DNA of 64,000 nucleotides, from NCBI GenBank assembly GCA_045537235.1, contig JAZSPB010000076.1, forward strand, positions 41-64,040, given 5' to 3'. Every line of letters starts with the position of its first letter. Position 1 is the first letter of the stretch. Source of the stretch: Eubacteriales bacterium (GTDB taxonomy: Bacteria > Bacillota > Clostridia > Oscillospirales > CAG-272). The translations under genes and the position numbers were made by a program. Shown here piece after piece: positions 11,321 through 58,130 of this stretch. The notes under the pieces were generated by a model that had not been told where the DNA came from, did not search any database, and saw only the letters and a list, made by a program, of their open reading frames with translations.

Positions 11321-11821
11321 ATGAAATTCGTTAAGATTCTTTCTTTGATTCTTGCGCTTCTCATGATCGGTGGCGCGATGGTTGCTTGCGGCGGCGGTAC
11401 CGAGACCGATGCACAGACGGAGAGCGATACCGAGGCAGAGGGCGGCGATGATACTTCGAAAGATATCGAAACCACTGATGAGCCCCTTACCGTAAACATC
11501 GTTGTAAAGAAGACTCAGGACGGTGAAGTTGTATACAGAAGCGAGCCCAACGGCTATAAGTACGAGGGTGAAATCCTTACCGTTCAGGAGATTTTTGTCG
11601 AGTTCATGAGCTCCGAGTATGATATCGAGCCCGAGTTTAACGATGAAGGCGAGCTGGTAAAGGTTGGTGACCTTGTGAAGGCTGACAACACCTACTTCTG
11701 GCTGTTCAGCATTGCGAAGCATCCTCAGGGTGAGGCGCAGGCAGAGCCCGTTGACGGAAACATCGACGAGTACGATGATATTGAAGAAAACGATACCATC
11801 GTTATCTACTTGAACAAGTAA
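11321..11821 (+). CDS. Acidic lipoprotein, possibly DUF4430-like
   Basis: Lipobox MVAC; D/E/T-rich linker; own sigmaA-like promoter (TTGACA near 11254) and GGAGG RBS. Confidence 0.6.
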   Translation: MKFVKILSLILALLMIGGAMVACGGGTETDAQTESDTEAEGGDDTSKDIETTDEPLTVNIVVKKTQDGEVVYRSEPNGYKYEGEILTVQEIFVEFMSSEYDIEPEFNDEGELVKVGDLVKADNTYFWLFSIAKHPQGEAQAEPVDGNIDEYDDIEENDTIVIYLNK

Positions 11822-11833
11822 TTTTGAATGAAT

Positions 11834-11865
11834 AACCGCTGAGGGAGACTTCAGCGGTTTTTTTG
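11834..11865 (+). terminator. Rho-independent terminator
   Basis: AACCGCTGA...TCAGCGGTT followed by a T-tract. Confidence 0.7.
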
Positions 11866-11969
11866 AGCCTTTTCAGGCTCTTTTTTTATGCCAACGGAAA
11901 GTGACAAATTTTTCATTTGTTGTATGATACAATGGAAATCGAGCAACACGGAAGAAAGGAAATAAGTCA

Positions 11970-12329
11970 ATGATAAAAAACACAGGAACCTTTGACGTAA
12001 GTATGGAAGGCAAAACCATGGTGGTATCGCTATTGGGGGAGATCGACCATCATAACGCATCGGTGCTTCGAACAGGGATCGACAAGTTGATCTACGAAAA
12101 ACGACCGGACAAGCTGGTACTGGATCTCAAATGTATTGATTTTATGGACAGTTCGGGGTTGGGATTGATCATGGGGCGGTATTCGCTGGTTCGGGAACTG
12201 GGTGGAGAGATGTCCTTGCGTGATCCCTGTAAGAATGTTTTGAAGATTTGTAAGCTTGCGGGGATGGAGCGATTGATACGAATCGAAAGATCGGTATCAG
12301 ACAAAATAAAGAATGAAAAGAAAGGATAA
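11970..12329 (+). CDS. spoIIAA: Anti-sigma F factor antagonist
   Basis: GEIDHH and FMDSSGLGLIMGRY motifs; operon order. Confidence 0.95.
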   Translation: MIKNTGTFDVSMEGKTMVVSLLGEIDHHNASVLRTGIDKLIYEKRPDKLVLDLKCIDFMDSSGLGLIMGRYSLVRELGGEMSLRDPCKNVLKICKLAGMERLIRIERSVSDKIKNEKKG

Positions 12330-12335
12330 GGATCC

Positions 12336-12803
12336 ATGAGACAAAATAAATTTTCGGGGACGGTTATCAATGAAATGAAGTTGGTATTGCCGTCTCTTTC
12401 GGTGAATGAAGGAACGGCGAGGTCGGTGATTGCCGCTTTTTGCTCTCAATTGAATCCCACAGCAACCGAAATTGCCGATATCAAATGTGCGGTATCAGAG
12501 GCGGTGACCAACTGTATTGTTCATGCTTACCGAGGGGGAATCGGACGAATTTACATAGGTGTCAGATTGTATGAGGAAAGGATCGTACGCGTATCGGTCA
12601 AAGATCTTGGATGTGGCATTGTTGATATCAAGAAGGCGAGACAGCCATTGTATACCACCGATTCCGAGAACGAGCGAAGCGGCATGGGATTTACCGTGAT
12701 GGAGAATTTTATGGATAAGCTCACCGTAAGCTCGCGTCCGGGCAAGGGAACGACGATCGTTATGTATAAGTGTATCAATCCTCCGTCGCTTTCTGACCTA
12801 TGA
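12336..12803 (+). CDS. spoIIAB: Anti-sigma F factor
   Basis: AVSEAVTNCIVHAY and ERSGMGFTVME motifs. Confidence 0.96.
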   Translation: MRQNKFSGTVINEMKLVLPSLSVNEGTARSVIAAFCSQLNPTATEIADIKCAVSEAVTNCIVHAYRGGIGRIYIGVRLYEERIVRVSVKDLGCGIVDIKKARQPLYTTDSENERSGMGFTVMENFMDKLTVSSRPGKGTTIVMYKCINPPSLSDL

Positions 12804-17785: not shown

Positions 17786-18883
17786 ATGAAGTTAGGTATC
17801 GTAGGTCTTCCCAATGTGGGAAAGAGTACCCTTTTTAATGCACTGACCAGTGCCGGAGCCGAGTCGGCAAACTATCCCTTCTGCACCATTGAGCCAAACG
17901 TAGGCGTGGTAGCAGTGCCGGACAAGCGTCTGGATGTTTTGGCAGAAATGTACAATCCCGAAAAATACACCCCCGCTGTCATCGAGTTCGTGGACATAGC
18001 AGGTCTTGTTCGCGGCGCTTCGAAGGGGGAAGGTTTGGGAAATAAATTTCTCTCTCACATCCGTGAGGTGGATGCGATCATTCACGTCATCCGTTGCTTT
18101 GAGGACGATAATATTATCCATGTAGATGGTAAGGTCGACCCGCTTCGTGACCTTGAGACCATCAACTTGGAGCTGATCTTCTCGGACATTGAGATTCTTG
18201 ACCGCCGTATCGACCGTGTGAAGAAGGCTATGAAGGGCGATAAGAGCTTGGCCGCCGAGGTCGAGCTTTTGGAGCGCATCAAGTCTGTTCTGGAAGAAGG
18301 AAAGTGCGCAAGAACCATTGAGTTTACCGAGGATGAGTTGGAGCTGCTTGGTAACGATACGCCTCTGCTCACACTCAAGCCCATTATTTATGTTGCCAAT
18401 GTCAGCGAGGATGAAGCAGGTGAGGAACCTGTGGGAAATCCTCTTTATATGGCACTCAAGGAATATGCCGCATCCGAGCATTCCGAGATTATTGCCGTTT
18501 GTGCCGGTATCGAGGCGGAGATTGCGGAATTGGAGCCCGAAGAGAAAAAAGCTTTCTTGGAAGATATGGGAATCGTCGAGAGCGGTCTTGATCGCTTGAT
18601 CCGCGCAAGCTACGCACTTCTGGGGCTGATCAGTTACCTTACCGCAGGTCCCAAGGAGGTTCGTGCGTGGACGATCACCAAGGGAACCCGAGCCCCCCAA
18701 GCGGCAGGAAAGATCCACAGTGATTTTGAACGCGGCTTTATCCGCGCCGAGGTGGTATCTTTTGATGACCTGGTAAGACTTGGCAACATGAACGCTGTCA
18801 AAGAGGCGGGCTTGATGCGAAGCGAGGGCAAGGAATACGTCATTGCTGATGGCGATATCGTTCTGTTCCGATTCAATGTTTGA
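17786..18883 (+). CDS. ychF: Redox-regulated ATPase YchF
   Basis: [28 protein letters not shown] and TGS domain. Confidence 0.98.
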
Positions 18884-18914
18884 TCGTTTTGATCAACCGA
18901 TATGATCGGGAGGT

Positions 18915-19059
18915 TCTTCTAAAACACTCCGCAAAATCTTGTTCCATGCCTCCCGTGAAGTTTGCACAATCACAACTCTTCCAAAAGAGTTTGGTTTGTT
19001 TGCACTTCCTTTATTCGGCAAAAGGATCCAAAGTTTTTGCGGAGCTTTTTTCAAAAAAG
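18915..19059. repeat. Long palindromic intergenic repeat, copy C (left arm degenerate)
   Basis: CTCCGCAAAA ... AAAGTTTTTGCGGAGCTTTTTTCAAAAAAG. Confidence 0.8.
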
Positions 19060-19112
19060 TAATCTCCGCGTCGCCACCCGAAAATCATTAAAAAGAAGGG
19101 AAGTCTATCAAC

Positions 19113-20360
19113 ATGAGAATGAGAAAAAAGAAAAACGGAGCCGCCAGAATCGAGGCTTGCAGCGACTTGCTGATCCGCGATACGACCGCGCTCTTTGAAA
19201 ATCCCGAATTTGCATTTTCCGAGTCGCGTCCTCTATACATCGAGATCGGATGCGGAAAGGGAAATTTTGCTTGCGGTATGGCGACCAAGTACCCCGACCG
19301 TAATTTTATTGCTATGGAACGAGTGGCAGACGTGGCTTGTTTGGCATTGGAAAAAGCGAAAGCTTGTGCCGAGGAACGTCCCGATAATCTTCGTTTTCTC
19401 ATCGGAGATGCCAAAAATTTGACCGAATGGCTTCCCGCTCACTCGGTAGACGGATTGTACCTCAATTTTAGTGACCCATGGCCCAAATCGGGTCATGCCA
19501 AGCGCCGTTTGACCTATCGCGGATTCCTCGAGCTTTACCGTCATGTGCTCAAGCCCGACGGAAAGCTGTATCTCAAAACCGACAACCAAGGGCTTTTTGA
19601 TTTCAGTCTTGAGGAATTTGCCGCCGCAGGACTGGTGACCGAATGGTTGACGAGAGATCTGCACAATTCCGACCGAGCCGAGGGCAATGTGATGACCGAA
19701 TATGAGACCAATTTCTCCTCGCAAGGAATGCCCATCTATTCCGCAGTCGTTCGCTTTGCTGAAACGGATAAAAAGAAAAAACACTCGTTGGAGATGTCCG
19801 ATCTTATGCTCCGTCAGCGTAGCTACCGCAGCTTTGACGAGAGCGTTCGTATCCCTCGTGAACAGTTGGTAGACTTTGTGAATAACGCACGGCTGATCCC
19901 GTCCTCCATGAATATCCAACCTCTTAAGTATAAGATCGTTACCGATCCTGTCGAATGCGATATTATGCTGGCTCAAACTAAGTGGGCAGCGGCATTGCCT
20001 CATTTGCATATCCCCCCCGAAGGTCATGCCCCCACGGCATATGTGGTCATTTGCGTTGACACTGCAATATCGGATAAGGACATTTTTGCCCGTGACGTGG
20101 GGATCGCCGCCGAGGTTATTATGCTGTCCGCAGTGGAAAAGGGATACGGCGGTTGCATGATCGGCAATTATTTGCCTAATAAGCTGGCGGAAGCCATGAA
20201 TCTTCCCGAAGGCGTTTTGCCCAAGCTGGTGCTGGGTCTTGGTAAGCCCGACGAAACAGTGGTGCTTGTTGACATGACCGAGAAGGGAACAGCCTATTAC
20301 CGAGATGAGAACGGCATTCACTACGTTCCCAAGCGGAGCCTGGAAGACATCATTCTGTAA
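19113..20360 (+). CDS. trmB: tRNA (guanine-N7) methyltransferase TrmB fused to a nitroreductase domain
   Basis: EIGCGKG, LNFSDPWPK and MTEYE in the first ~215 aa; then RSYRSF, PSSMNIQP, DVGIAA and GYGGCMIG in the same frame. Confidence 0.9.
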   Translation: MRMRKKKNGAARIEACSDLLIRDTTALFENPEFAFSESRPLYIEIGCGKGNFACGMATKYPDRNFIAMERVADVACLALEKAKACAEERPDNLRFLIGDAKNLTEWLPAHSVDGLYLNFSDPWPKSGHAKRRLTYRGFLELYRHVLKPDGKLYLKTDNQGLFDFSLEEFAAAGLVTEWLTRDLHNSDRAEGNVMTEYETNFSSQGMPIYSAVVRFAETDKKKKHSLEMSDLMLRQRSYRSFDESVRIPREQLVDFVNNARLIPSSMNIQPLKYKIVTDPVECDIMLAQTKWAAALPHLHIPPEGHAPTAYVVICVDTAISDKDIFARDVGIAAEVIMLSAVEKGYGGCMIGNYLPNKLAEAMNLPEGVLPKLVLGLGKPDETVVLVDMTEKGTAYYRDENGIHYVPKRSLEDIIL

Positions 20361-46471: not shown

Positions 46472-46520
46472 TTACTGAATTGAAAAATTGTCAATCAGTA
46501 AACATATGGAGGATATTTTT

Positions 46521-47999
46521 ATGGCGGAATACAGTATCTATCGGGACATCGCAACACGTACCGGCGGCGACATTTACGTTGGCGTTGTCGGTCCTGTCAG
46601 AAGCGGAAAATCTACATTTATAAAACGCTTCATGGAGGCGATGGTGCTTCCCAATATCAGCGACCCGCACGCCAAGGATCGGGCACGCGATGAGATGCCT
46701 CAAAGCGCGGCAGGCAAGACGGTAATGACCACCGAACCCAAATTCATTCCCGATGAGGCAGTGGAGATCAATCTTGACGGCGGCGTAAGTATGCGCGTCA
46801 AAATGGTGGATTGTGTGGGATATATCATTCCCGAGGCGCTGGGCGCCATTGAGAACGGTCAACCTCGTATGGTGCGCACACCGTGGCGAGAGGAGCCTAT
46901 GCCCTTTGTGGAGGCAGCCGAGATGGGAACCGAAAAGGTCATTAACGAGCATGCCACCATCGGAATGTTGGTCAGTACCGATGGCAGTATCGGAGATATT
47001 TCCCGTGAAAGCTATGTGGAAGCCGAGGAACGCATCGTAAATGAACTGAAAGCCATTGGTAAGCCGTTTGCCATGATCCTCAATTCTGCCAATCCCACAG
47101 CCGAAGCCTCGGTAAAGCTGGCATATGAGTTGGAAGCCAAATACTGTGTTCCCGTAGCTTTGGTGAGCTGTCTGGAGCTGGATGCCGAGGATATTCGGCA
47201 GATTCTTGAGTTGGTTCTCCATGAATTTCCCGTCAGCGAGATGCGTGTAAAATTTCCGACATGGGTTTCCGCTCTGGAGACTACCCACCCCATCCGTGCG
47301 TCACTTTCGGAGGCGGTAAGAAGATGCGTTGCCAATATTCGAAAGATCGGGGATGTAAACGGTGCATTTGACGAGCTGAAAAACAATGAAAATGTGGAAG
47401 AGGTTTCCATTGATCGCATAGACCTGGGAAACGGCTGTGCACAGATATCGACAAAGCTTAATGACGGACTGTTTTACGAAACAGTCAGCCAGCTTACGGG
47501 TATGGAGATTGCCGATGATAAAAATCTGATATCCACTCTCCGTGAATTGGCGGCGATGAAGTCCAAATACGATCGCGTGGCAGAGGCATTGGAAGATGCT
47601 ACCGATAAGGGCTACGGCATCGTCATGCCGGATATTGAGGAGCTGCATCTGGAGGAGCCTGAAATCGTCAAGCAGGCGGGAGGATATGGAGTTAAACTTC
47701 GTGCCGCAGCCCAGTCCATTCACATGATCCGCGCCAATATCGAAACAGAGATCAATCCCATCGTAGGAAGCGAGCAGCAGTCCGAGGAGTTGATCAAATA
47801 TATGCTTCGCGAATTTGAGGAAGACCCTCGCCGCATTTGGGAGTCCAATATGTTTGGTAAGAGTCTGTATGAACTGATGAACGAGGGGTTGCATACGAAG
47901 CTTTCCAACATTCCCGAGGAGTCCCGCACTCGACTTTCGGAGACCTTGGAACGTATAATCAACGAGGGAAGTGGCGGCCTGATTTGTATTATTCTTTGA
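46521..47999 (+). CDS. spoIVA: Stage IV sporulation protein A
   Basis: GVVGPVRSGKSTFIKRFM, MTTEPKFIP and C-terminal GGLICIIL. Confidence 0.98.
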   Translation: MAEYSIYRDIATRTGGDIYVGVVGPVRSGKSTFIKRFMEAMVLPNISDPHAKDRARDEMPQSAAGKTVMTTEPKFIPDEAVEINLDGGVSMRVKMVDCVGYIIPEALGAIENGQPRMVRTPWREEPMPFVEAAEMGTEKVINEHATIGMLVSTDGSIGDISRESYVEAEERIVNELKAIGKPFAMILNSANPTAEASVKLAYELEAKYCVPVALVSCLELDAEDIRQILELVLHEFPVSEMRVKFPTWVSALETTHPIRASLSEAVRRCVANIRKIGDVNGAFDELKNNENVEEVSIDRIDLGNGCAQISTKLNDGLFYETVSQLTGMEIADDKNLISTLRELAAMKSKYDRVAEALEDATDKGYGIVMPDIEELHLEEPEIVKQAGGYGVKLRAAAQSIHMIRANIETEINPIVGSEQQSEELIKYMLREFEEDPRRIWESNMFGKSLYELMNEGLHTKLSNIPEESRTRLSETLERIINEGSGGLICIIL

Positions 48000-48145
48000 C
48001 TTTTTCTTGTTTGGGGAGTCGTTTCGGCGGCTCCTTCTTTTGTAAAATAGGGGAGGACAAGTCTTACTGCCTTTTTCTTTCTTCCGAACATTCCAAGGTG
48101 TGTGGGGGAGACCAACAGCGGTTTTCTGCGATTCTTGAATAAATG

Positions 48146-48173
48146 AACCGATTTTTCATAAAAGCATATGCTA
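48146..48173 (+). promoter_or_regulatory. Possible mother-cell (sigmaK/sigmaE-type) promoter of the split GH18 gene
   Basis: -10 CATATGCTA (48165-48173) with AACC 15 bp upstream; alternative GAATAAA-N13-CATAAAAG just upstream. Confidence 0.45.
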
Positions 48174-48204
48174 TATTGAAATACCAACACAGAAAGGAAT
48201 CGTC

Positions 48205-49052
48205 ATGGTCATTTATACAGTGAAAAACGGAGATTCGCTATACAACATCGCAAGAGCTTATGGAACCACGCCCGATCGAGTCGTTGCAGATAACGATCTG
48301 AAGGATCCCTCAAAACTTGTCGTCGGTCAGACATTGGTTATCCAACAGCCGCTGGTATCCTACCGCGTACGGAGCGGAGACACGGTATATTCGATCTCCC
48401 AACAGTTTGGCGTCAGCCTGAATCAGCTTTATCGCAACAATCCCGTCCTTATGGGAGGAAATAATCTTGTTGTAGGGCAGTCGCTCAACATTGTTCTCCC
48501 TCAAGTACAAAACGACCGCGAGATCGAGGTCAACGGTTATGTATATCCTTCTGTCAGCCGCGAAACACTCATGCGCACCTTGCCGTATCTTACTTATATT
48601 ACGGTTTTTACTTATCGAATTGGAGAAGACGGAACTTTAGAGGACGTTGATGACGAGGAGATCATAGAAATGGCGCGGCAATACGGGGTAGCGCCCATTA
48701 TGCAGATTTCATCGGTTACCGAACGGGGAACCTTTTCCTCCGAAATTGCGGCGCGAATCTTGTCGGACGAAGCATTGCAAGACACGATCATTGAAAATGT
48801 TTTGGCGGTTTTGAGTGAAAAACGGTATGTGGGCGTTGATGTGGATTTTGAATATGTGGAAGGGCAATATGCGGATGCCTATGTGACCTTTCTCGAAAAA
48901 TTACACGCGCGATTGAGTTCCGAGGGATATCAACTGTTTGTCGCTCTTGCCCCAAAATACAATGCCGACCAAGAAGGGCTGCTATACGAAGGGCACGATT
49001 ACGCAGGTGCTGGTGCAGCCGCGGACGGTGTGACACTGATGACGTATGAATG
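48205..49052 (+). CDS. 5' half of an interrupted LysM2-GH18 spore hydrolase (YdhD/YaaH-SleL family)
   Basis: Two LysM repeats, EVNGYVYP, catalytic DVDFE, LLYEGHDY; family similarity stops at LMTYE and the frame runs ~19 unrelated codons to a stop at 49110. Confidence 0.92.
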
Positions 49053-49075
49053 TGTCATTTTTTCTTGCAAGATTC
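49039..49075 (+). other. attL recombination site
   Basis: ATGACG-TATGAATG-T-GTCATTTTTTCT; element-side arm 49054-49065 is the reverse complement of 56474-56485. Confidence 0.88.
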
Positions 49076-49118
49076 AAAAATATAATGCCGAATCTTATAA
49101 ATGCGTATGAGAATTCAG

Positions 49119-50618
49119 TTACAGACGGGGGAAAAGATCAATGGTTACGGCACGGGTTTGGCTGTCTTTGCGATAGGTGAGCTTGGCGAGAATTTCTTTG
49201 TACATATGGTGCTTTTCTTCAGCGGACAGCGTATCATAGGTGTCGAACAGATGTTGGATCTTGGGCTTGAAAACAGTATTCGGTGTGAGATTCTTTTCGC
49301 TCGCTTGAAGTTGCTTTTCCATCGCGTCTCTTTGGACACGATACTCTTCCAACCGAGTCTCAATGACAGCGCGGCGAGATATAAATGTGGGAATGTCATA
49401 GACACCTTGTTCAAGAAAGTCAAGTGCTTTTTGGAGTTGGAGTCGAAGTTTTTGGGTTTTGCTGTCGATATGGAAAAGCGCCTTCCGGACGAGAGTTGTT
49501 TCGGTCGCGCAGGGTGAATTTTGAAGATTGGCATAACAACGCATTCGGGAGAGCAGGGAATCCTTGACAGCCTTTTCCATGATGAAAAAGAGGGATGACA
49601 TCACATGACAATTTCGGTCAGAGCACATAATACGGCGCTCCTTTCCCGAGGAAGCACCTGTCATTTTGGCACCGCATTCCGCGCAATAGGCAATGCCGGA
49701 GAATACATTGTAGAATTGATGACCGCGAGCGGTCTGGTTGGTGCGGTTGACCGATCGAACATAACAGGCTTTTTCAAAAGTGTCATCATCGATGATGGCG
49801 GGGTGCCGACCTTCATAAACGGGGCAGTCGAAGTCATAATGACGGGATTTCACAACGGAGCCGTCTACCAGTTTTTTATTGGTTTTTTTATAGGAACAGC
49901 GGATCTTTCCTGTGTAGACAATATTGCGAAGAATAGTCGAAACAACGACCGGACTCCACGGAACACCGGTTCGCGAGGGAATGTGAAGCTCATTGAGGTG
50001 CTCCGCAAGACGGGTGAAGCCGAGACCTTGTTCAATATAGATATGAAACATATATTTGACCGTTTCCGCTTCTTCGGGATCGATTTCAAGGGTGTTTCCT
50101 TTATCGCCTTTGATTTTGGCGATCCGATATCCAAAAGGGGCTACACTTCCCATAAACCGTCCCTCGGCGGCGGAGCGTTTTCTTCCTCGCTCAAGGCGGC
50201 GATTGATGAGCATATATTCTTTGCGCGACATGAAGAGATTAAATTCAAAAAATTCTTCATCATATTCATTGGCGGGATCGTAGGTCTTGTAGGGGGTGAT
50301 GATTTTTGTGTTGGTGTATTTGAAGGTTTGCGTGATGATCCCCTGATCGATGGAGTTGCCGCGGGAGAGGCGGTCAGGATCCACACAAAGAACACCTTCG
50401 ACCTCGCCCATCTCAACGAGGCGAAGGAGCTTTTGCATTTCGGGACGTTCGATCAAAGATTCGCCGGAGACGACTTCTTCAAAAGAACGGGCGATGGTGA
50501 TACCTTGAGAGCTTGCGAAGGATTCCAGGAGAATACGGTGCCGTTTCAGTGTTTCTTCCACGGACAGTTCGTTATAGTCGCGGTCATAGCGGGATTTTCG
50601 AATGTAAGATATGTACAT
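49119..50618 (-). CDS. Large serine recombinase (SpoIVCA-like, 499 aa)
   Basis: YIRKSR catalytic motif, EEVVSGES, DPDRLSRG, APFGY recombinase domain, CAECG...CSDRNC zinc ribbon and coiled coil; AAGGAG RBS. Confidence 0.95.
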   Translation of the reverse strand: MYISYIRKSRYDRDYNELSVEETLKRHRILLESFASSQGITIARSFEEVVSGESLIERPEMQKLLRLVEMGEVEGVLCVDPDRLSRGNSIDQGIITQTFKYTNTKIITPYKTYDPANEYDEEFFEFNLFMSRKEYMLINRRLERGRKRSAAEGRFMGSVAPFGYRIAKIKGDKGNTLEIDPEEAETVKYMFHIYIEQGLGFTRLAEHLNELHIPSRTGVPWSPVVVSTILRNIVYTGKIRCSYKKTNKKLVDGSVVKSRHYDFDCPVYEGRHPAIIDDDTFEKACYVRSVNRTNQTARGHQFYNVFSGIAYCAECGAKMTGASSGKERRIMCSDRNCHVMSSLFFIMEKAVKDSLLSRMRCYANLQNSPCATETTLVRKALFHIDSKTQKLRLQLQKALDFLEQGVYDIPTFISRRAVIETRLEEYRVQRDAMEKQLQASEKNLTPNTVFKPKIQHLFDTYDTLSAEEKHHMYKEILAKLTYRKDSQTRAVTIDLFPRL

Positions 50619-50662
50619 AAAGACTCCTTTCGTGGTTAACGACGGGAAGGGAATTCTTTTTG

Positions 50663-50691
50663 ATTTTATGTGGGCAAAATAAGAGATATGT
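50663..50691 (-). promoter_or_regulatory. Putative sigmaE promoter of the recombinase
   Basis: Minus strand ACATATC-N14-CATAAAAT, about 45 bp upstream of the ATG. Confidence 0.7.
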
Positions 50692-50820
50692 TTGGCGGAT
50701 TGATCTTTCATGATTGGAACAGATCGCGACAAAGACCGCGTTGAAGCATTTGAATGGATAAGTCCCGAAAGGAAAGAAATTCTTTTTCAGAACATAGGAT
50801 TTAGAGAAAGGAGTGATGAT

Positions 50821-51003
50821 ATGGCAGTGGTAACGATCTACCGTTATGAGGAGTTGAATGTGACGGTTTTGATTCACGATGATGAAATGCTGTCCGAAAA
50901 GGAACGTCGAGAGGTGGTGGAGCGGCTGTTTCGTTATGAGGAGGAGGCTTGTGCTCGGACGCATTGTCGAGATGGGCAGAAAGAGGGTGAAGGACGATCA
51001 TAG
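50821..51003 (+). CDS. Small 60-aa protein divergent from the recombinase; candidate recombination directionality factor
   Basis: Strong RBS AGAAAGGAG; CATAGGAT -10-like box at 50793-50800; MAVVTIYRY...VLIHDD resembles small clostridial prophage proteins. Confidence 0.65.
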   Translation: MAVVTIYRYEELNVTVLIHDDEMLSEKERREVVERLFRYEEEACARTHCRDGQKEGEGRS

Positions 51004-51140
51004 AGGGATGGCTTACAGATAAGTTTCTTATTATACAAACAACAGTTGAATTCGAAACAACCGAGTGATAAAAAATATGTAGGTGAATTTCTCTTGAAAA
51101 CGGCAAGGAAAAGTTGTGTGGAAAGGATGCGACATAAAAT

Positions 51141-51168
51141 TTTAGCCCCGCTTTTGGCGGGGCTTTTT
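51141..51168. terminator. Terminator hairpin between convergent genes
   Basis: AGCCCCGC-TTTTG-GCGGGGCT followed by a T-tract. Confidence 0.75.
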
Positions 51169-51169
51169 A

Positions 51170-51877
51170 CTAAAAAAAGAATAGGGAACCTACATCATAA
51201 AGTCCCTCATCCGAGAGGGAGATGACATCAAACCCGTGAGCGGAACAAAACGATAAAATGTTTTTTCCGTCGGGATGTGTCAAAATGTCGCCACAGAAAA
51301 ACACAGTATGATTGCAAACACCCGAGGCACCGCCGATAAAGCCGTGGTCGAAGCCGTCAAGCGCAACGTGTCCTTCGGAGATGCGCAACACATTGATCGA
51401 AAGTGCACGGCACGTCTTTTCCATCGCGGGATCGGCGGTAATGACGGCTTTGTCCCCGAGCGTTACGGTGGAGCATTTTGCATATCCTTGGTTGGTGTTG
51501 AATATTGAGATCCCATGTTCCTCTGCATAAAGCTGTACTGCTTTAGCCATGTTGGTGCGCCGTCCTATGACATGGTTGCCAAGGATCGCGAGATTGAGGG
51601 AGACATCGCATGGATATTCAGCGCCTACCGCATCGTCGGTCAGCGTCAGCGAAAGGGAAGTCGCGTTAATTATTCGGTCGATTGTTTCTTTGGCCTCGGT
51701 ATAATATTTTTTGTGAACAAACATTCGGTCACCAAGAGGAAGGATCAGCATATCGGGATGGGATGCCACTCTTGGATCAAATGTCGAAAACGGGGGCAGA
51801 GAAATAATAGAAAAGCCTCGCGTTAAAAGCGTCGTGCGACATTTTTCCGAAATTCGGATATCGGTTACAGCAAGCAT
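51170..51877 (-). CDS. DUF6873-like (GME-fold) protein
   Basis: SHPDM, YPCDV, QGYAKCS, HGFIGGASG and LYDVGS motifs; GGAGG RBS. Confidence 0.75.
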   Translation of the reverse strand: MLAVTDIRISEKCRTTLLTRGFSIISLPPFSTFDPRVASHPDMLILPLGDRMFVHKKYYTEAKETIDRIINATSLSLTLTDDAVGAEYPCDVSLNLAILGNHVIGRRTNMAKAVQLYAEEHGISIFNTNQGYAKCSTVTLGDKAVITADPAMEKTCRALSINVLRISEGHVALDGFDHGFIGGASGVCNHTVFFCGDILTHPDGKNILSFCSAHGFDVISLSDEGLYDVGSLFFF

Positions 51878-51902
51878 AATACCTCCAAAAGTGTGCGCCT
51901 GT

Positions 51903-52086
51903 GGGCGAGGGAGGTCGCTTTTTTGAAAAAAAGCTCCGCAAAAAACTTTTGATCTACGCTCTTTTTTGGGGTTGCGCGAACATAGTGAGACACCGGTTGC
52001 TCAAACATCAGCAGGGGCGAGGAGCAAAAGTTTTTGTGCGCTTTTGAAGAAAGTGTGCTTTTTTCAAAAAGTGACCTATCCCGTCC
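51903..52086. repeat. Long palindromic intergenic repeat, copy E (inside the element)
   Basis: GGGAGGTCGCTTTTTTGAAAAAAAGCTCCGCAAAAAACTTTTGATC identical to the left arm of copy A; right arm degenerate. Confidence 0.88.
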
Positions 52087-52149
52087 ACAGGCGAACAAAA
52101 ATAAAGCCGGCAGACATGAACGACTGCCGGAAACTTTATGACCGCACAA

Positions 52150-52335
52150 TTAAGCGCGGGTGATCTTGCCCGAACGCAGGCAACGGGAACAAACGGCAAC
52201 GGTCGTAGGGGTACCGTCAACGATTGCCTTTACCTTACGAATGTTGGGCTTCCAACATCTGTTGGTCTTGCGGTGGGAGTGGGAAACGTTCTGTCCGAAG
52301 ACAACGCCCTTTCCACAAATGCTGCACTTTGCCAT
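52150..52335 (-). CDS. rpmB: 50S ribosomal protein L28 (zinc-binding form)
   Basis: MAKCSICGK...VSHSHRKTNRCWKPNI...CSRCLRSG; AGGAGG RBS. Confidence 0.97.
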   Translation of the reverse strand: MAKCSICGKGVVFGQNVSHSHRKTNRCWKPNIRKVKAIVDGTPTTVAVCSRCLRSGKITRA

Positions 52336-52400
52336 TTTGACACCTCCTGTATGCGGCTTCACGCATTGATGCGAGTTGAACTCATTACATAACGAGATAT

Positions 52401-52429
52401 ATTATACCATAACCGAGGGGAAAATGCAA
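52401..52429 (-). promoter_or_regulatory. sigmaA promoter of rpmB
   Basis: Minus strand TTGCAT-N17-TATAAT with extended -10 TG. Confidence 0.75.
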
Positions 52430-52450
52430 TAGTTTTTTGAAAATTTTTTC

Positions 52451-53761
52451 TCACAAAATGGATTTTTCTTTCTTTTTTTCAATGCAGGGGACGGATTTTT
52501 GACCGTAGACCGCTCCCGAGCCTTGTGCTGACTCAATGCGGAGCAGACGATTGTACTTGGCTACGCGCTCGCTTCTGCAAGGTGCTCCCGATTTGATATA
52601 GGGGGCATTTACCGCGACGGCGATATCCGCCAGTGTTGTGTCTTCCGTCTCGCCGGAGCGATGGGAGAGAATAAAGCCGTAATGGGCATCCTTCGCCGAG
52701 TGGATGACATTCAAGGTCTCGCTGAGTGTGCCGATCTGATTGGGTTTGATGAGAATAGCATTTCCCATGGCTTCTCGAATTCCCTTGGCAAGACGGGAAA
52801 CATTGGTCACAAACAGGTCATCTCCCACCAGCATGATTCGCTTTCCGAGACGCTCGGTCATCTTTTTCCACGCATCAAAATCTTCTTCGCCAAGACCGTC
52901 TTCGATGGATATGATGGGGTAACGGTCGACATATCGTTCGTAGGTGGCGATCAGTTCATCGGCGCTTTTTACTTCGTCTCGTTTGAACATATGATATTTT
53001 CCGTCCTCGCGATACCAACCGCTGGCTGCCACATCCAACGCGATCTTGACTTCGTCGGTGGTGTAACCGGATTTCTCAATGGCGCGACAGATCAGCTCAA
53101 TGGCTTCTTCGTCCGATTCCAAGTCAGGGGCATAGCCGCCTTCATCTCCCACAGTGGCGGTTCTTCTCATTCCTTTTAGGATATTTCCAAGTGTGTGATA
53201 GATCTCGCTTCCCATACGAAGACCTTCCGAAAAGCTTTCCGCGCCAACGGGCAAGATCATGAACTCCTGAATTTCCACATTGTTAGCCGCATGAGCGCCA
53301 CCGTTGAGAATGTTCATCATGGGAACGGGAATGCGGTATGCGTCAATGCCTCCGAGGTAGCGATAAAGGGGAATGCCGTAATGATTGGCAGCAGCGCGTG
53401 CATTTGCCATGGAAACCGCCAGAATGGCATTGGCACCTAAACGGGACTTATTTTCGGTGCCGTCCAGTTCACAAAGGATACGGTCAAGTTCATGCTGTTC
53501 ACAAGCATTGATGCCCGAAATGGCGGGAGAAATAACTTTACAGACGTTGTAAACCGCCTTCATAACACTTTTTCCGTGATAATAGGCGGCGTCTGCATCC
53601 CGTTTTTCGTGGGCTTCAAATTTGCCGGTCGAGGCGCCCGATGGAACGCTGGCCACTCCCACAGTTCCGTCATTTAGAAAAACCGTGGCCTCCACCGTGG
53701 GATTGCCTCGCGAGTCAAGGATCTCCCGCGCGCAACATTTAACAATTTGAGGTTTGCTCAT
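52451..53761 (-). CDS. eno: Enolase
   Basis: [48 protein letters not shown] and SHRSGET all present. Confidence 0.96.
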
Positions 53762-53924
53762 TTTATTTGCTTCCTTTCTTTTTCTCTACCGTTATTATTG
53801 GCAATTGAGGGGATTTTATTCTGCTTGCTGAAATATGAATGTTGGGCTTTTAAAGGGCAGAGCGAAAAGGACCTGGGGATATCCTCAACGGATTCTTTGC
53901 TTGCATTGAATTCGTCTTTGGGGG

Positions 53925-53953
53925 TTGACAATGATAATAAAGTGGGCTATACT
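53925..53953 (+). promoter_or_regulatory. Internal sigmaA promoter
   Basis: TTGACA-N17-TATACT embedded in the polyvalent reading frame. Confidence 0.65.
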
Positions 53954-54290
53954 GAATATGCCAAAAAGAAAAGGAAAAAAGTATATCGAGGCGGTGTAAT
54001 CATTCGTCGCGGCAAGGTGGTAAGTAACGGCAAGCGAACACAGACGGACTCCTTGATCGATAATGTTTTTCCTCCATATGACCCCTTTGTTAAGCACGGA
54101 AGTGAAGCGCATCGTTTGGCATTGGATTGGGCCTATAAGGCAGATACCAAGGCAGGGGACATGACTTTGATCTCGTATCATGACAGGTGGTATTTGGTTC
54201 AGAAATTCGATGATGCAGATTCAAAGTATTTAATTCGTCGCCGTGTTTTGAAGGCGGAATTTGAGAAAGTAAGCAAGGAGATTGAAGAAA

Positions 54291-54548
54291 ATGGAAAGAG
54301 CGGAGATATCAGCTCCATACAAAGAAGACTTACTCGGAATGATAAACGCAATAAATCGGGTTATTCCTTTAAGGAAAGAGAATCAAGTGTTGATCGTGAT
54401 GTTATTGAACACAGACGAGAAGGTCAATCAGTGGTTCGAATGGTTACGACCGAGAGTGACGGGCGAGAACGATCTGGACGCGACGGAGGCGGAGATCGTG
54501 AGGGCAGCGGTCAGGATAGACAATGGGAAGGATCCGAACGAGAGCTAA
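54291..54548 (+). CDS. Nested out-of-frame 85-aa protein inside the polyvalent ORF
   Basis: AAGGAG RBS at 54275-54280; amphipathic helical sequence while the host frame becomes R/G/E/S-rich low complexity. Confidence 0.6.
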   Translation: MERAEISAPYKEDLLGMINAINRVIPLRKENQVLIVMLLNTDEKVNQWFEWLRPRVTGENDLDATEAEIVRAAVRIDNGKDPNES

Positions 54549-55521
54549 CCCAAGAAGATCGTGAGGCATATGCGGCGTTTACAAGTGAACTTGGGGCGCA
54601 TATGTCGGAGGCTATTCTTGGCAATGAGGATTTTATTGACCGTGTGGTGCGCTCCGATGCTTCACTGACCGAGAAGGTGATCGGGAAGATCAGAAGCTTG
54701 AAGGAAGCCTTTGCTCGCATTGGAGATGCTGAGGCGCAGGCACAGCATAAGAGGTTGGTCGAGGCTGAAAAGCGGTATCTTAAGGCCATCAAGGCGGCGG
54801 GGTATCAGTATCGAGGCGGTAAGGTTTTGGTGTCGGAGGAGGAAAAAGAAAACACCGCGGAGGGCGGTGTCATTCAAGAGGCGGATCGTGTAAAATATTC
54901 TTTGAAAATCAAGCATACAGACGGCTCGATAGAAGAGTTGGCAGATGCAAGAAGTCTGACTGAGGAACAAGCTAAAAATTATCTCAAGCAAGCCAAGACC
55001 GGTGCTTTGCAAGGCCATACGTATATACCTGTTAGAAAAGACACACCACAAGTAATTATTGACACACTCAAACAAGTCAATGAGAATGTGGATGACTATT
55101 CTTTGGTGATGCAAGTAGGAAAGGCCAGACAGGCAATGTCTACAGAGAAATCAGGCAGTCGCAGACAAAAGCGAGGAAACAATGTCAGAAAACATGGATT
55201 GGGTCCCAAGGAGATAGTGACTATTATGAGTTGCCTTGACGATCCTACTGCGATAATATATCAAACCAATCGTGTAGACAAAAGTGGCAAAGATCTTCCC
55301 AATAATGTTGCAGTGGTTGTGGAGTATTCTGTAAGCGGTAACGAAAGCATTGCCGTGATAGAATTCGATAGTTCTATTCCGGCAGAAACAATCGGATTAG
55401 AGCAGGGGGATACAAGATATCATACGGTTGTTACGGTATTTGAGCCGGACACAATGCGAGATGATGTGGCGTTTGATTATGTGTCTGAATTGTTGTCTAA
55501 CCCCAACAACATTCTTTTGAC

Positions 55522-55594
55522 AATAGAAAGAGGACAACCCGCAAGAAGTGCCACCCGGGAGAAACATCCCAACACTTCAAGCAAACTGCCCTCT
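55522..55594 (-). ncRNA. Candidate antisense hairpin sRNA
   Basis: Minus-strand TTGACA-N16-TATAAT (55601-55628); 14-bp and 8-bp stems whose mismatches are all G-U pairs on the minus strand. Confidence 0.45.
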
Positions 55595-56080
55595 AATCCT
55601 ATTATATCCAAAAATTCAGAAATGTCAACCCCAAAACCGAAATTTTCTTTGAAGGAAAAAGGAGAGCGGGGCGAAAACAAAAAGTCCAATTCTTATACCA
55701 AAGAAGAAGCACGCGCCATGGTAGATAAGATCATGGAGGTGTTTGTGGGAGAGGGATATCATGGCAAACTTCCGGGCAAGAGAACCGAGGCGATTGATCG
55801 GGCACATATGATATTGAATAGCGCAGAGCCCGGAAAACGCGGAAGTGCGGCGTTGGATTTTGCGGATTATATTCTTCGTCATGCGGTGCTGGAGGATACG
55901 GTTGACGTGGATGAGGTTGCCCCCTATATGGAGAAGGTCGATCAGCTCAAGCCCTATTTGCGGCGATTGAATCTTGAGGAGCTTCGGGATGAAATTCGGC
56001 ATCATTATGATACTGACAGAAGTCTGCAATGGTGCTTGCCGGTGTTGAGGCGGTGAAAATGTATTATGAGTCGTTTAAGC

Positions 56081-56149
56081 AAAAAAACACGGGTCGTCAA
56101 GCCGCCGCGTCTGATTTAACAGAGGTCAACAAGCTCCATCGCCGTGTCG
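56081..56149 (-). ncRNA. Second candidate antisense hairpin sRNA
   Basis: Minus-strand TTGACA-N17-TACATT (56155-56183); ends pair (ACACGG/CCGTGT) and are followed by a U-tract. Confidence 0.4.
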
Positions 56150-56463
56150 TTTATAATGTATCAGAATTTCTTTCATTTGTCAAGAGCAAACTAAGGTACT
56201 TGTCATACGATATGCTTTTATTGGAACAAAAAAGTAAAAGAGAGACATTTTTCGAAACAATTCAATATATCGAATAGAAAAACGGCAAAAAATATATTGT
56301 AAATAATTGTATTCAAAAAGAGAATATTAACATGAAATGAGAAGCAATGGAGATGAGCGAAAAGCCGAGAAGAAACTTAAATTCTTTTGGGAAATTCGTT
56401 TGGGACCGTCAGAGGTGTAGAAGAATCGAGAGGGTATTCTCATAATTCCCGGGCAGTTGTTCC

Positions 56464-56494
56464 CGACCTTTTGAGAAAAAATGACCTATGAATG
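56464..56494 (+). other. attR recombination site
   Basis: AGAAAAAATGAC-C-TATGAATG then GGGATAT, resuming the WGY codons. Confidence 0.88.
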
Positions 56495-56945
56495 GGGATA
56501 TTCAAGAGGTGAACCGCAAGCGGTATCCCCGGTGGATAAAGTGCGTCGCGTAGTCGAGTACGGCGTGACGGAGATCCCTCCCGAAAAAATATTTTTGGGA
56601 ATGCCAAACTACGGTTATGATTGGCGGTTGCCCTTCGTAATGGGTGAAACGGTGGCGCGGTCACTTTCCAATGTGGAGGCGGTAGATCTTGCCAAGACCA
56701 ATCGCGCGGCAATTTTGTTTGACGAAGTAGCGCAGTCGCCGTATTTTAACTACTTTATAAGAGAGAACGGACGAAATACGGAGCACATCGTTTGGTTTGA
56801 AGATGCAAAAAGCGTAGCGGCAATGCTGGGGCTGGTCGAGGAGTTCGGTTTGCGCGGTTTCACCGTGTGGAATTTGATGCGTTACTTTCCTCAGTTGTGG
56901 CTTGTTCTCAATAACACCTTCCGCATCCGAAAAACACTTTCTTGA
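56487..56945 (+). CDS. 3' half of the interrupted LysM2-GH18 spore hydrolase
   Basis: YEWGYSRGEPQAVSP, EIPPEKIFLGMPNYGYDWRLP, AQSPYFNY, HIVWFEDAKS and FPQLWLVL continue the family sequence. Confidence 0.92.
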   Translation, partial: YEWGYSRGEPQAVSPVDKVRRVVEYGVTEIPPEKIFLGMPNYGYDWRLPFVMGETVARSLSNVEAVDLAKTNRAAILFDEVAQSPYFNYFIRENGRNTEHIVWFEDAKSVAAMLGLVEEFGLRGFTVWNLMRYFPQLWLVLNNTFRIRKTLS

Positions 56946-57004
56946 TCTGTAAATTTGGGAATTCCTGCAAAAGCGGTAAAAAAGGATATTCAATGCCTAT
57001 AATA

Positions 57005-57042
57005 AAAGCCGAAGGTCTTTTTTGGATATGACCTTCGGCAAA
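57005..57042. terminator. Terminator between convergent genes
   Basis: GCCGAAGGTC ... GACCTTCGGC. Confidence 0.7.
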
Positions 57043-57050
57043 ATTTTTAA

Positions 57051-58130
57051 TTATTTATCTGCTCTTTTTTTCAAAATGGTGTTCATATATACCAGCCAGT
57101 CGCGTCGGCTGAAATAATGGGAGCCGTCACGGAGATGATAACAAACATTTCCCTCATGAAAATCAGCCCCGGGGACGGGAAGCCTGTCGGGGGCGACAAA
57201 TCCCGAAAGTCCCAAATTTTCCCACGCGCGGGAGGCTGCTACGCAGGAAAGATACTCGGAGTCGGGATCGGCCCAGGTATCCTCCTCCGCCGAGCCGATC
57301 AGAACAACGCGAGGGGCAATGGTGGCAAGGAGCATATGTTGGTCGAATGTCAATGCTTTGTGATCTACATATTTTTTATAATTTTCACAGAACCAGTAGG
57401 GGAATGTCTTGGTAATGTTGGAGATCTGCTCGCCCACCTTGCCGCGCGTAATGGCAGTGCCGCTGCATCCGGAATCATTGGAGATGACATAGCGGAAGCG
57501 TTCGTCCAACATACCGGTTACCAGTGCGGTCTTTCCCAATCGAGAGTGACCGGCTACCGCACCGTGCTCATGATCCAATTGATCCAATGTCATTGCATAG
57601 TCCATCACGCGCATATTAGCCCATGCCCACATGAGAATCTTGCCGGTATCGTTTCCGTTTTTCCGAATGCCGTCGGGGAACAGAATGCCTGCAAGACCGT
57701 TGGTCATATCGTTATTGTCGGAGGTTATATTTTGATAGCAAAGTTCAAAAACGGCAAAACCGTTGTTGATAATTTCTTCGACGGGAAGATATTTGCTTGG
57801 TACTAAATATTCAAAGTCGTTGTGAACTATGAACGGATATTTACCTTTTTTATTAGGAATGACCGCCGTGAAGGGGAAGGAAAAATCTTTTCCGCAGACC
57901 TCGACATGAGCAACGATCTCATATTTGGTGGCCGCACCTGCGCAGAATCTACGCTGTGCTCCATTGGGTGGAATGACTTCGAATTCCACTTTGGTCGGCT
58001 CGGGAACGGGCAGTCCGTATTCCTCATTGAAAAGCGTTGTTTTATATTTTTCACGGATGGTACTCCATGTGTTGAAATCAAAAGCATCAAGCTCACAGAT
58101 ACCTCTTTCTTTCAGCATTTTTTTTAACAT
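57051..58130 (-). CDS. CE15-like (glucuronoyl esterase family) alpha/beta hydrolase
   Basis: WAW...RVMDY, GHSRLGK, SGCSG, DQHMLLATIAPR and DTWADP. Confidence 0.85.
   Translation of the reverse strand: MLKKMLKERGICELDAFDFNTWSTIREKYKTTLFNEEYGLPVPEPTKVEFEVIPPNGAQRRFCAGAATKYEIVAHVEVCGKDFSFPFTAVIPNKKGKYPFIVHNDFEYLVPSKYLPVEEIINNGFAVFELCYQNITSDNNDMTNGLAGILFPDGIRKNGNDTGKILMWAWANMRVMDYAMTLDQLDHEHGAVAGHSRLGKTALVTGMLDERFRYVISNDSGCSGTAITRGKVGEQISNITKTFPYWFCENYKKYVDHKALTFDQHMLLATIAPRVVLIGSAEEDTWADPDSEYLSCVAASRAWENLGLSGFVAPDRLPVPGADFHEGNVCYHLRDGSHYFSRRDWLVYMNTILKKRADK

Follow-up and report, generated by a model that had tools for sequence, protein, structure and literature searches.

A sleL/yaaH-type gene split by an element that carries a large serine recombinase and the host's eno-rpmB block

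A sleL/yaaH-type gene in two parts downstream of spoIVA

The window, i.e., the whole 64-kb stretch of DNA that was analyzed, contains spoIVA followed by a gene in two separated parts (Table 1). The 5′ ORF (48205..49110, + strand) encodes two LysM domains and positions 64-182 of the GH18 profile, and the 3′ ORF (56481..56945, + strand) encodes positions 215-314 (Pfam); as it now stands, the 5′ ORF runs on into the intervening element and reaches a stop at 49110. Residues 3-282 of the 5′ part match residues 6-287 of YaaH structure 4s3k (E 2.7e-44), and residues 1-152 of the 3′ part match residues 284-432 (E 1.5e-41). A previous sequence-only reading of this DNA had described a GH18 gene broken after spoIVA that resumes downstream on the same strand and can be rejoined in frame, and the present analysis bore out both points. 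In silico deletion of 49053-56494 (7442 bp), which that reading had proposed, fused 48205-49052 to 56495-56945 and gave a 1299-nt frame with a single, terminal stop; the encoded 432-aa LysM2-GH18 protein retains an intact catalytic GVDVDFE motif. Uninterrupted alleles, suggested as a comparison by the same reading, were found in eight same-genus genomes. The fused protein aligned to 8/8 of them without gaps at 63-78% identity (over residues 1-431 or 1-429 in seven alleles, and 35-431 in one allele at a contig end).

The fused product is collinear, end to end, with the solved YaaH/cortical-lytic enzyme (SleL) structures 4s3k and 4s3j, and it possesses the hallmarks of these proteins: two LysM domains, a GH18 barrel with D-x-D-x-E, and a length of ~430 aa. 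The split gene is therefore assigned to the SleL/YaaH type of spore cortex hydrolase genes, with hydrolase activity and spore location predicted for its product. In B. subtilis, yaaH is expressed in the mother cell.

Immediately 5′ of the split gene, ~40 bp (48165-48204) match the region upstream of the GH18 gene in the related genome G007. An AC-N16-CATATGCTA sequence at 48147-48173 bears a weak likeness to a sigma-K consensus.

Table 1. Features of the split gene, the intervening element, and their surroundings
Feature	Position	Strand	Description and basis
spoIVA	46488..47999	+	Pfam SpoIVA_ATPase, middle and C domains; adjoins split gene
Terminator-like hairpin	48013-48036		3′ of spoIVA
5′ part of split sleL/yaaH-type gene	48205..49052	+	Two LysM and GH18 N-half; codons 1-282 plus 2 nt
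attL	49039..49064	+	Gene-side arm, core TATGAATG (49045-49052), element-side arm GTCATTTTTTC (49054-49064)
Large serine recombinase	49119..50618	-	499 aa (gene call); Pfam PF00239, PF07508, PF13408
60-aa acidic orphan ORF	50821..51003	+	Divergent from recombinase; ribosome-binding site GAAAGGAG
Two-way terminator-like hairpin	51144..51164		Left edge of native block
Native host block DUF6873-rpmB-eno	51170..53804	-	Pfam; order and orientation as in relatives
DUF6873 gene	51170-51877	-	Pfam
Dispersed-repeat insertion	51878-52096		219 bp, inside native block
rpmB (L28)	52150-52362	-	Pfam
eno (enolase)	52451-53761	-	Pfam; ~43 bp of eno upstream DNA also in block
Large ORF	53825..56056	+	743 aa (gene call); relative on viral contig L164
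Third core copy TATGAATG	53834..53841	+	30 bp past eno-side breakpoint
TTGACA-17-TATACT	53925-53953		Within large ORF
82-aa ORF	56029..56277	+	No Pfam, NCBIfam, or PHROG match
attR	56475..56500	+	Element-side arm GAAAAAATGAC (56475-56485), core TATGAATG (56487-56494), then gene
3′ part of split gene	56495..56945	+	Last base of codon 283, codons 284-432, stop

Attachment sites, recombinase, and a candidate directionality factor

Both the repeat shared by the two junctions and the 499-aa large serine recombinase beside the left one had been claimed from the sequence, and both were found. The junctions are identical at 13/14 positions, with a common core of 8 bp. The bare 8-mer occurs five times in the 64-kb window vs. 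2.84 expected, so it is not rare in itself and counts through its position at both ends of the homology gap; the 14-mer ATGACNTATGAATG occurs without mismatch in the window only at the two junctions. The 11-bp element-side arms are exact reverse complements and flank a 10-bp spacer that includes the core. With this perfect inverted repeat, the element-side flanks have the form expected of an attP.

The recombinase is convergent with the 5′ part of the gene, with 55 bp between its end and the attL arm (49064 to 49119); its ORF extends over 49119..50732 (- strand), beyond the recorded gene call. The protein is full length, with Resolvase, Recombinase, and Zn_ribbon_recom domains all above Pfam cut-offs, and it matches the PHROG 95 integrase (E 2.7e-86). 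Its nearest full-length relatives (P0002-P0010) share 60-69% identity. R7 and S9 are invariant in 10/10 aligned clade members, S9 being presumably the nucleophile by analogy. The best NCBIfam matches, CcrB and XisF, are both far below their cut-offs, and the recombinase was placed outside the XisF family on these grounds (second-best match, E 2.5e-24, 86 bits vs. a cut-off of 375). A coiled coil probably lies in the ~110-residue stretch that separates the zinc ribbon from the C terminus.

A search with the divergent 60-aa ORF returned no relatives but itself, so its reality as a gene is argued from its ribosome-binding site and one structural model. The model of its complex with the recombinase scored 0.66, vs. 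0.19 for the best control (the mark for such models is reached by 58/80 solved complexes and 2/110 mismatched pairs). Across three runs, at least 67% of contacts agreed and the partner pLDDT was at least 55. The modeled interface joins recombinase residues 346-361 and 488-499 to ORF residues 5-24, and the contacted residues flank the coiled coil just past the zinc ribbon, at the coiled-coil base. In the SPbeta system, the directionality factor SprB is reported to contact its integrase at the second DNA-binding domain and at the coiled-coil base (PMC11722253), the same region as in the model. The 60-aa ORF is thus a candidate recombination directionality factor. No convincing sporulation-type promoter was seen for the recombinase or the 60-aa ORF in a comparison by eye with a consensus.

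The large ORF is fragment-like and related to the central part of polyvalent proteins (2000-3900 aa) from mobile elements, which we regard as a lead, and the 82-aa ORF had no match in Pfam, NCBIfam, or PHROG. Among five element proteins compared to PHROGs, the integrase was the sole match, and Pfam revealed nothing phage-like. Identification of the element as a prophage was considered and rejected, given that no structural, packaging, or lysis genes were detected with PHROG or Pfam; the same databases gave no sign of any transfer or packaging gene left in the element.

A native host block inside the element

Colinearity with G007 extends to 47995, and spoIVA is the last gene colinear with relatives ahead of a rearranged block. 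In six relatives, spoIVA and the intact GH18 gene flank DUF6873-rpmB-eno, placing it upstream of the latter gene; here it lies inside the element. Its eno is as similar to that of G007 (84.8% identity) as spoIVA is (84.6%), and the trapped eno and rpmB are the only enolase and L28 genes of the assembly. The block is native and entered the element by a three-breakpoint rearrangement, so the element consists of a 4.8-kb remnant and 2.6 kb of host DNA. Intervening DNA that is all foreign is typical of skin-like elements, if not strictly defining, and here ~2.6 kb is the host's own. The sequence-only reading of a skin-like element was correct about the interruption but did not notice that 51170-53804 is native.

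An odd gene order could in principle reflect chimeric metagenome assembly. The source is a draft genome in 187 contigs (completeness 84%, contamination 3%), and depth in public runs is low (~3-6). Against this, separately assembled contigs bridge the joint of spoIVA and the 5′ part of the GH18 gene (X1 record 2, 47286-48366, two differences), that of eno and the large ORF (X1 record 6, 52407-54026), and attR, the last in two studies (X1 record 7 and X2 record 16). X1 is not fully independent, as it may be the source sample, and the contig pieces listed include neither attL nor the joint of the recombinase and DUF6873. The breakpoints have no repeats able to mislead an assembler, and an artefact is highly improbable.

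A recurrent insertion site and the case for excision

The interruption is not a one-off. In an order-wide sample, the gene is split at the same MTYEWGY motif in 11 of 135 genomes that carry it, as it is in 14/109 metagenome or viral loci. The smallest of the elements at this site measures 5 kb and the largest 44 kb. In one pair of empty and occupied sites, identity is 99.73% across the 16.6 kb that lead up to the junction. All 10 split genes examined (G000 and nine others; G235, with a fragmented 3′ half, was excluded) have retained both halves as well as the D-x-D-x-E catalytic Glu. These data identify the MTYEWGY site as an insertion hotspot.

We consider it moderately probable that the locus holds an integrated, decayed, and block-swapped element that is excised in the mother cell to rebuild a spore hydrolase gene. 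A mobile element, now degenerate, would once have entered the conserved MTYEWGY codons of the single sleL/yaaH-type gene through recombination of attP with attB. Most of it would then have decayed, leaving the recombinase, the 60-aa ORF, the polyvalent-protein gene fragment, and the 82-aa ORF, and a later three-breakpoint block swap would have put the host's DUF6873-rpmB-eno between its two halves. At sporulation, the recombinase and a small factor would recombine attL with attR within the core in the terminal mother cell, to give a 7442-bp circle and the rebuilt 432-aa gene, and the forespore would retain the interrupted copy. The skin-like strategy proposed earlier for a spore hydrolase gene stands in its anatomy, but the element is not simply a mobile element and the case is not isolated.

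The insertion might instead be inert, i.e., a dispensable spore gene was inactivated, its halves look intact owing to a recent insertion or slow decay, and no cell type carries out excision. Among 13 same-genus genomes, five gave no match to the gene, and the syntenic site in G004 and G012 lacks it; it may therefore be dispensable, and an uncorrected insertion could then be tolerated. In G843, the 3′ half of the split gene contains a stop, which shows that decay does befall some split copies. We detected neither an attB nor an attP junction in the assembly, and hence no excised form; such joints were also absent from assembled contigs of public runs, which says nothing either way on excision. 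Furthermore, serine integrases are reported to need a cofactor for excision, and the directionality factor here is a candidate from modeling. However, the loss of all recognizable phage or conjugation functions and the block swap point to an old element, in which the recombinase and the two att sites are nonetheless intact, as are the two gene halves and the catalytic motif. The same features are likewise intact in G181, where a 5.2-kb remnant occupies the site. The small partner is also modeled at the site where directionality factors bind. That the recombinase has stayed intact in an otherwise decayed element, and one that cannot be lost, speaks for continued selection for excision, and we regard the inert insertion as rather unlikely.

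Excision could also occur in growing cells, randomly or on stress, without any tie to the mother cell, the element then behaving as an integrative mobile element or a phage-type regulatory switch. Some related insertions are true prophages, such as the 20-kb G122 element with terminase, baseplate, amidase, and DnaB genes at the same GH18 site, and the yin element of yabG was seen in excised form at every time point (PMC10747680). Two features make this explanation quite improbable: the segment holds the only enolase and L28 genes, so excision followed by loss should kill a dividing cell, and the element has no transfer or packaging genes left according to Pfam and PHROG.

Mother-cell excision would place the locus beside known systems. 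The skin element in sigK is kept in the germ line and is served by SpoIVCA and Skr in B. subtilis and by CD1231 and CD1234 in C. difficile (PMC6957869, PMC5025042). Like skin, the element described here is a decayed one in a sporulation-type gene, with its own large serine recombinase beside a junction, precise frame restoration, and, in the 60-aa candidate, a possible counterpart of the small separate directionality factor. Unlike skin, it contains native essential genes, its recombinase is not a close relative, and its target encodes a spore cortex hydrolase-type protein in place of a sigma factor, which means that sporulation itself would be able to proceed without excision. In B. cereus, the gin element of gerE uses GirC and GirX and crosses over in a 9-bp core inside the coding frame (PMC5595907). 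Both gin and the present element are small and lack phage genes, with a serine recombinase, an extra factor (a candidate here), and an in-frame core; gin, as described there, has three recombinase genes and restriction-modification genes, whereas one recombinase and host housekeeping genes are found here. SPbeta in spsM (SprA and SprB), vfbin in spoVFB, vrin in spoVR, and yin in yabG sit in mother-cell sporulation genes and are cut out to rebuild them, and the G122 element resembles SPbeta in being a prophage; the present target gene differs from all of these, and its element is a remnant plus host DNA. The serine recombinase XisF removes the fdxN element, one of the heterocyst elements of Anabaena, in a terminally differentiated cell (PMC6957869), in another phylum with a different developmental program and target.

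The sporulation genes named as rebuilt by DNA rearrangement in the literature consulted are sigK, spoVFB, spoVR, spsM, gerE, and yabG, and we found no published report of a sleL/yaaH-type gene as the target of an intervening element. If excision takes place, a spore-wall enzyme gene would join this short list, in a case from uncultured gut Clostridia, whose spread from host to host is governed by sporulation. What is new here is the host's eno-rpmB block inside the element and the hotspot at MTYEWGY. By swallowing essential host genes, the intervening element of the window can no longer be lost, an outcome that we did not meet in the literature. A broader and more speculative proposal, which we hold to be unlikely, is that capture of eno-rpmB, far from being a neutral accident, makes the element a permanent, domesticated developmental switch kept in the germ line, that sleL rebuilding is common in the sporulation of gut Clostridia, and that several recombinase lineages converged on one 31-bp stretch. 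Under capture, only the terminal mother cell could afford excision, because a dividing cell that lost its only eno and L28 genes would die. The hotspot also supplies a natural set of large serine integrases that share one conserved 31-bp target, useful for studying the evolution of target choice: several recombinase lineages are represented, with crossovers at three or more positions and with both gene placements.

The split gene and its junctions

The GH18 gene that follows coaD and spoIVA in the window is broken within its conserved LMTYE/WGY motif. Joining positions 48205-49052 to 56495-56945 in silico removed 7442 bp and gave a 432-aa frame, which aligned without gaps to all eight fetched uninterrupted genes of the same genus (63-78% identity; residues 1-429 or 1-431 in seven, the eighth gene ending at a contig end). 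In a sequence search, the 5' part matched the solved "spore germination protein YaaH" (4s3k; residues 6-287, E = 2.7e-44) and the solved "cortical-lytic enzyme" 4s3j, and the 3' part matched 4s3k over residues 284-432 (E = 1.5e-41); YdhD (3cz8) was a poorer match than either structure. On these similarities the gene is assigned to the sleL/yaaH type. Its catalytic stretch, GVDVDFE, is intact, and no other GH18 gene is found in the assembly. In Bacillus, such a gene is expressed in the mother cell. The sequence-only reading had described this split of a LysM2-GH18 gene, with a repeat shared by the junctions, in-frame rejoining to 432 aa and release of 7442 bp, and it holds in every detail: the fused product is collinear with the YaaH structure, YdhD being less close, and shows no gap against homologues, including all eight intact alleles from the genus.

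Zero-mismatch occurrences of the 14-mer ATGACNTATGAATG in the window are confined to the two junctions, attL and attR. The 8-bp core within it is not rare by itself (2.84 copies would be expected in the window, and five are present), and its placement at both junctions is what matters. The element-side flanks of attL and attR are exact reverse complements, so the rejoined element site (attP) would consist of two 11-bp arms in perfect inverted repeat on either side of a 10-bp spacer, the spacer centre falling within the shared core. This arrangement is that expected of a serine-integrase attP. The junction words of attP and of the rejoined gene (attB) were absent from the whole assembly. Among the Logan contigs of four public runs, neither the 49052>56495 joint nor the circle joint was present, assembled contigs being uninformative on excision; other joints in these contigs lay in conserved rpmB/eno sequence or were short-sided, and were taken to come from other organisms. 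Two further sequences were considered as leads to the mechanism of the block swap described below: the third core copy, 30 bp beyond the eno-side breakpoint, has flanks unlike the att arms, and an attR-like 22-mer at 52058 proved to belong to a dispersed repeat.

Features of the split gene, the element and the rearranged block
Feature	Position	Strand	Remarks
ORF with two LysM domains and first part of GH18	48205-49110	+	GH18 profile positions 64-182
ORF with last part of GH18	56481-56945	+	GH18 profile positions 215-314
Shared core, attL	49045-49052		TATGAATG
Shared core, attR	56487-56494		TATGAATG
attL element-side flank	49054-49064		GTCATTTTTTC
attR element-side flank	56475-56485		GAAAAAATGAC
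Third core copy	53834-53841	same strand as att cores	TATGAATG; CTGAAATATGAATG, 2 mismatches to the 14-mer
Large serine recombinase	55 bases past attL arm	-	499 aa
Acidic 60-aa ORF	50821-51003	divergent from recombinase	GAAAGGAG ribosome-binding site
Breakpoint 1	between 48013-48036 and 51144-51164		between two terminators
Breakpoint 2	old eno-GH18 spacer		about 43 bp kept with eno, about 40 bp with the gene
Breakpoint 3	inside the element

A native block inside the element

The sequence-only reading took the interior as an excisable 7442-bp segment. The released length stands, but the segment is not all foreign and encloses a native host block. The order coaD (+), spoIVA (+), DUF6873 (-), rpmB (-), eno (-) is found in four of six relatives' loci (genomes G007, G001, G004 and G012), and eno lies directly upstream of, and divergent from, an intact GH18 gene in six genomes (G001, G002, G007, G008, G009 and G010). 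In the window, spoIVA is followed by the 5' gene part, attL, the recombinase and the 60-aa ORF, and only then by DUF6873, rpmB and eno, all on the minus strand; to the right of eno come a large ORF, an 82-aa ORF, attR and the 3' gene part. The block (51170-53804) has swapped places with a segment that comprises the 5' gene part plus the element's left half, through three breakpoints, with no change of orientation and with no repeats at any of the three. Identity to G007 is 84.8% for eno and 84.6% for spoIVA, and identity to G001 is 77% and 78%; these matching values indicate that the DUF6873-rpmB-eno block is native. The trapped eno and rpmB are the sole enolase and L28 genes of the assembly (84% complete) by tblastn and Pfam profile.

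Separately assembled contigs span the joints of spoIVA with the 5' gene part and of eno with the large ORF, and attR, the last also in a contig from another study's run; the attL and recombinase/DUF6873 joints were not among the contig pieces listed. As far as checked, the gene order is no invention of the assembler. Gut metagenome runs of two studies, with animal hosts given in their records, contain near-identical contigs; the organism is known from a draft genome alone.

The foreign part of the element is a remnant. Its large ORF matches the middle alone of proteins of 2000-3900 aa, which a feature search suggests, as a lead only, to be polyvalent proteins of phages and conjugative elements. 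NCBIfam and PHROGs gave no match for the large ORF, the 82-aa ORF, a 97-aa ORF or DUF6873, and the element has no phage-family (PHROG) match besides the recombinase. An IMG/VR contig, L164, carries a relative of the large ORF (18255-19121; 35% identity over 300 aa) and also a portion of a related recombinase, which fits a mobile-element origin of the element's right half.

The two spacers of G007 that correspond to breakpoint sites in the window (spoIVA/DUF6873 and eno/GH18) each hold about 860 bp of unmatched DNA (8292-9155 and 11585-12452 of its locus, L033). Between DUF6873 and rpmB, the window has a 219-bp insertion (51878-52096) that is not in G007 and is built of a roughly 60-nt unit in inverted pairs. 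It is a dispersed repeat of intergenic DNA and very abundant, with 497 blastn-short hits over the 2.8-Mb assembly and, in run X1, a summed contig depth of about 11,500 at 51925; Rfam gave no match at E<=0.1 over 47900-57100, which takes in the repeat. The loci of G004 and G012 (L037 and L038) keep coaD-spoIVA-DUF6873-rpmB-eno with no GH18 gene after eno, and their spoIVA-DUF6873 gaps measure 1.8 kb and 4.2 kb; some species of the genus have apparently lost the spore hydrolase gene.

Recombinase, candidate cofactor and proposed excision

The large serine recombinase reported next to the left junction was borne out, with Resolvase, Recombinase and zinc-ribbon domains each above cut-off and a match to the PHROG 95 integrase (E = 2.7e-86). 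Its nearest relatives are nine metagenome clusters (60-69% identity over full length), the next being at <=46%, and the active-site R-x-S is invariant across these ten proteins. Close relatives were found in none of 13 genus genomes (E<=1e-80) and none of 400 family genomes (E<=1e-120). A species-genome scan gave relatives at <=38% identity, without a nearby GH18 gene in the eight loci checked, and the clade profile, run against metagenome and viral sequences, reached at most about 42% over full length. The sister clade (20 rows, about 40-42% identity) comes from 20 metagenome contigs (L062-L080 and L091), several with record names that say human gut, and has no adjoining GH18 gene. The assembly holds four further large serine recombinase genes, on contigs C94, C97, C26 and C138 (L172, L173, L175 and L176), with neighbours that include a D5-like primase, a restriction-fold toxin domain and a YhcG nuclease; the 10 flanking ORFs scanned revealed no split sporulation gene, contig C29 being left out as its flanks were too short.

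The 60-aa ORF, a candidate recombination directionality factor, has no relatives in a collection of 5.8 billion proteins. A complex model with the recombinase scored 0.66, against 0.19 for the best of three controls; 58 of 80 solved complexes and 2 of 110 mismatched pairs attain that mark. Agreement between runs covered at least 67% of contacts, and partner pLDDT was at least 55. The modelled interface comprises recombinase residues 346-361, just past the zinc ribbon, and 488-499, at the C-terminal end. The SPbeta factor, in the available text of PMC11722253, binds the second DNA-binding domain and segments at the coiled-coil base, and the interface modelled here lies in the corresponding region. 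This one complex model with its controls supports binding of the 60-aa ORF to the recombinase. Inspection by eye against a consensus revealed no convincing sporulation promoter upstream of either gene. An all-against-all comparison of small ORFs beside similarly placed recombinases, covering window ORFs other than the 60-aa ORF, gave no match to them.

The locus is best read as a skin-like arrangement. The gene would stay interrupted in the germ line; recombination of attL with attR by the recombinase and a cofactor would rebuild it in the mother cell, and the circle with eno and rpmB would stay behind in a cell that divides no more. At this locus, vegetative cells are unlikely to excise the segment, whose loss should be lethal to them. 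The main competing reading is an insertion that is tolerated and never corrected, as might be suspected from the absence of the gene in 5 of 13 same-genus genomes and from one split copy elsewhere that is decaying; against this, the recombinase, both att sites and both gene halves are all intact in an element that is otherwise stripped and itself not losable. Such retention is the strongest argument for developmental excision, towards which we lean, if only slightly, at this locus.

Available text of the papers searched (PMC4191935, PMC5595907, PMC10747680, PMC6957869, 10.1101/2022.02.25.481979 and PMC11722253) names sigK, spoVFB, spoVR and spsM as interrupted genes, and further gerE, yabG, kamA and spoVK, one paper also writing spoIVFB. 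The target had been put forward as possibly undescribed, and no report of yaaH, sleL, ydhD or GH18 as an interrupted target was found in this literature; supplementary tables and Abe et al. 2013 may add targets, and the claim of a new target is one of "not found" rather than "not in print". Nor did the literature searched, to the extent available, yield a case of essential host genes within such an element.

A recurrent insertion site

For the 3' fragment, a search limited to short proteins yielded 128 relatives (E<=1e-10; 155 candidates), many of them 131-163 aa long and on long contigs, and in several an unrelated leader stands just before TYEWGY, YEWGY or WGY. In a sample of the order, 135 of 401 genomes (that of the window included) have the gene, and 13 of these 135 carry the 3' part in an open frame of <220 aa; two at contig ends were left aside. 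Each of the 10 other genomes checked has the 5' part, up to residue 282, in a separate short frame, and split genes, with the window's, number 11 of 135 over six families. A large serine recombinase (30-38% identity to the window's) adjoins a junction in 9 of the 10, seven times upstream of the 3' part in the same direction and twice converging on the 5' part, the window's arrangement. Elements with both halves on one contig measure about 5.2, 20.4, 40.3 and 43.9 kb; that of G122 is a prophage with terminase, baseplate, amidase and DnaB genes, and the 5.2-kb element of G181 is a remnant.

Shared cores occupy at least three positions in a stretch of about 31 bp (offsets -12 to +19 relative to the codon 282/283 boundary): a TATGA-type core in the window, G122, G250 and G235 (the last by its attL), ATGAATGGGGAT in G154, and a TATAC(A/T)TA-type core in six genomes. 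Joining at the core restored a full-length frame in all nine genomes with both junctions, and the catalytic Glu is kept in 10 of 10 restored products (window included). The recombinase profile drew 109 metagenome and viral loci; in 14 of them a recombinase borders directly on a fragment of the gene. Two metagenome contigs, L087 and L088, share 99.73% identity along 16.6 kb and separate precisely at the GH18 motif (about 16646), the gene being intact in L087 and interrupted by a recombinase element in L088; they are a natural empty/occupied pair and yield a real attB. In a quick tree of 129 recombinases, whose contexts are incomplete, the 23 gene-adjoining ones fall in several separate places and the window's clade is sister to 20 non-adjoining ones, which suggests that the choice of target arose more than once.

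In the class sample, the same motif is the site of the split in 2 of 146 gene-bearing genomes outside the order, and one other is split elsewhere. In G851, from another family, the gene lies in two pieces (C47:19441-20091 and C2:100959-101402), the 5' part ending near residue 218, so that the gene may have a second insertion site.
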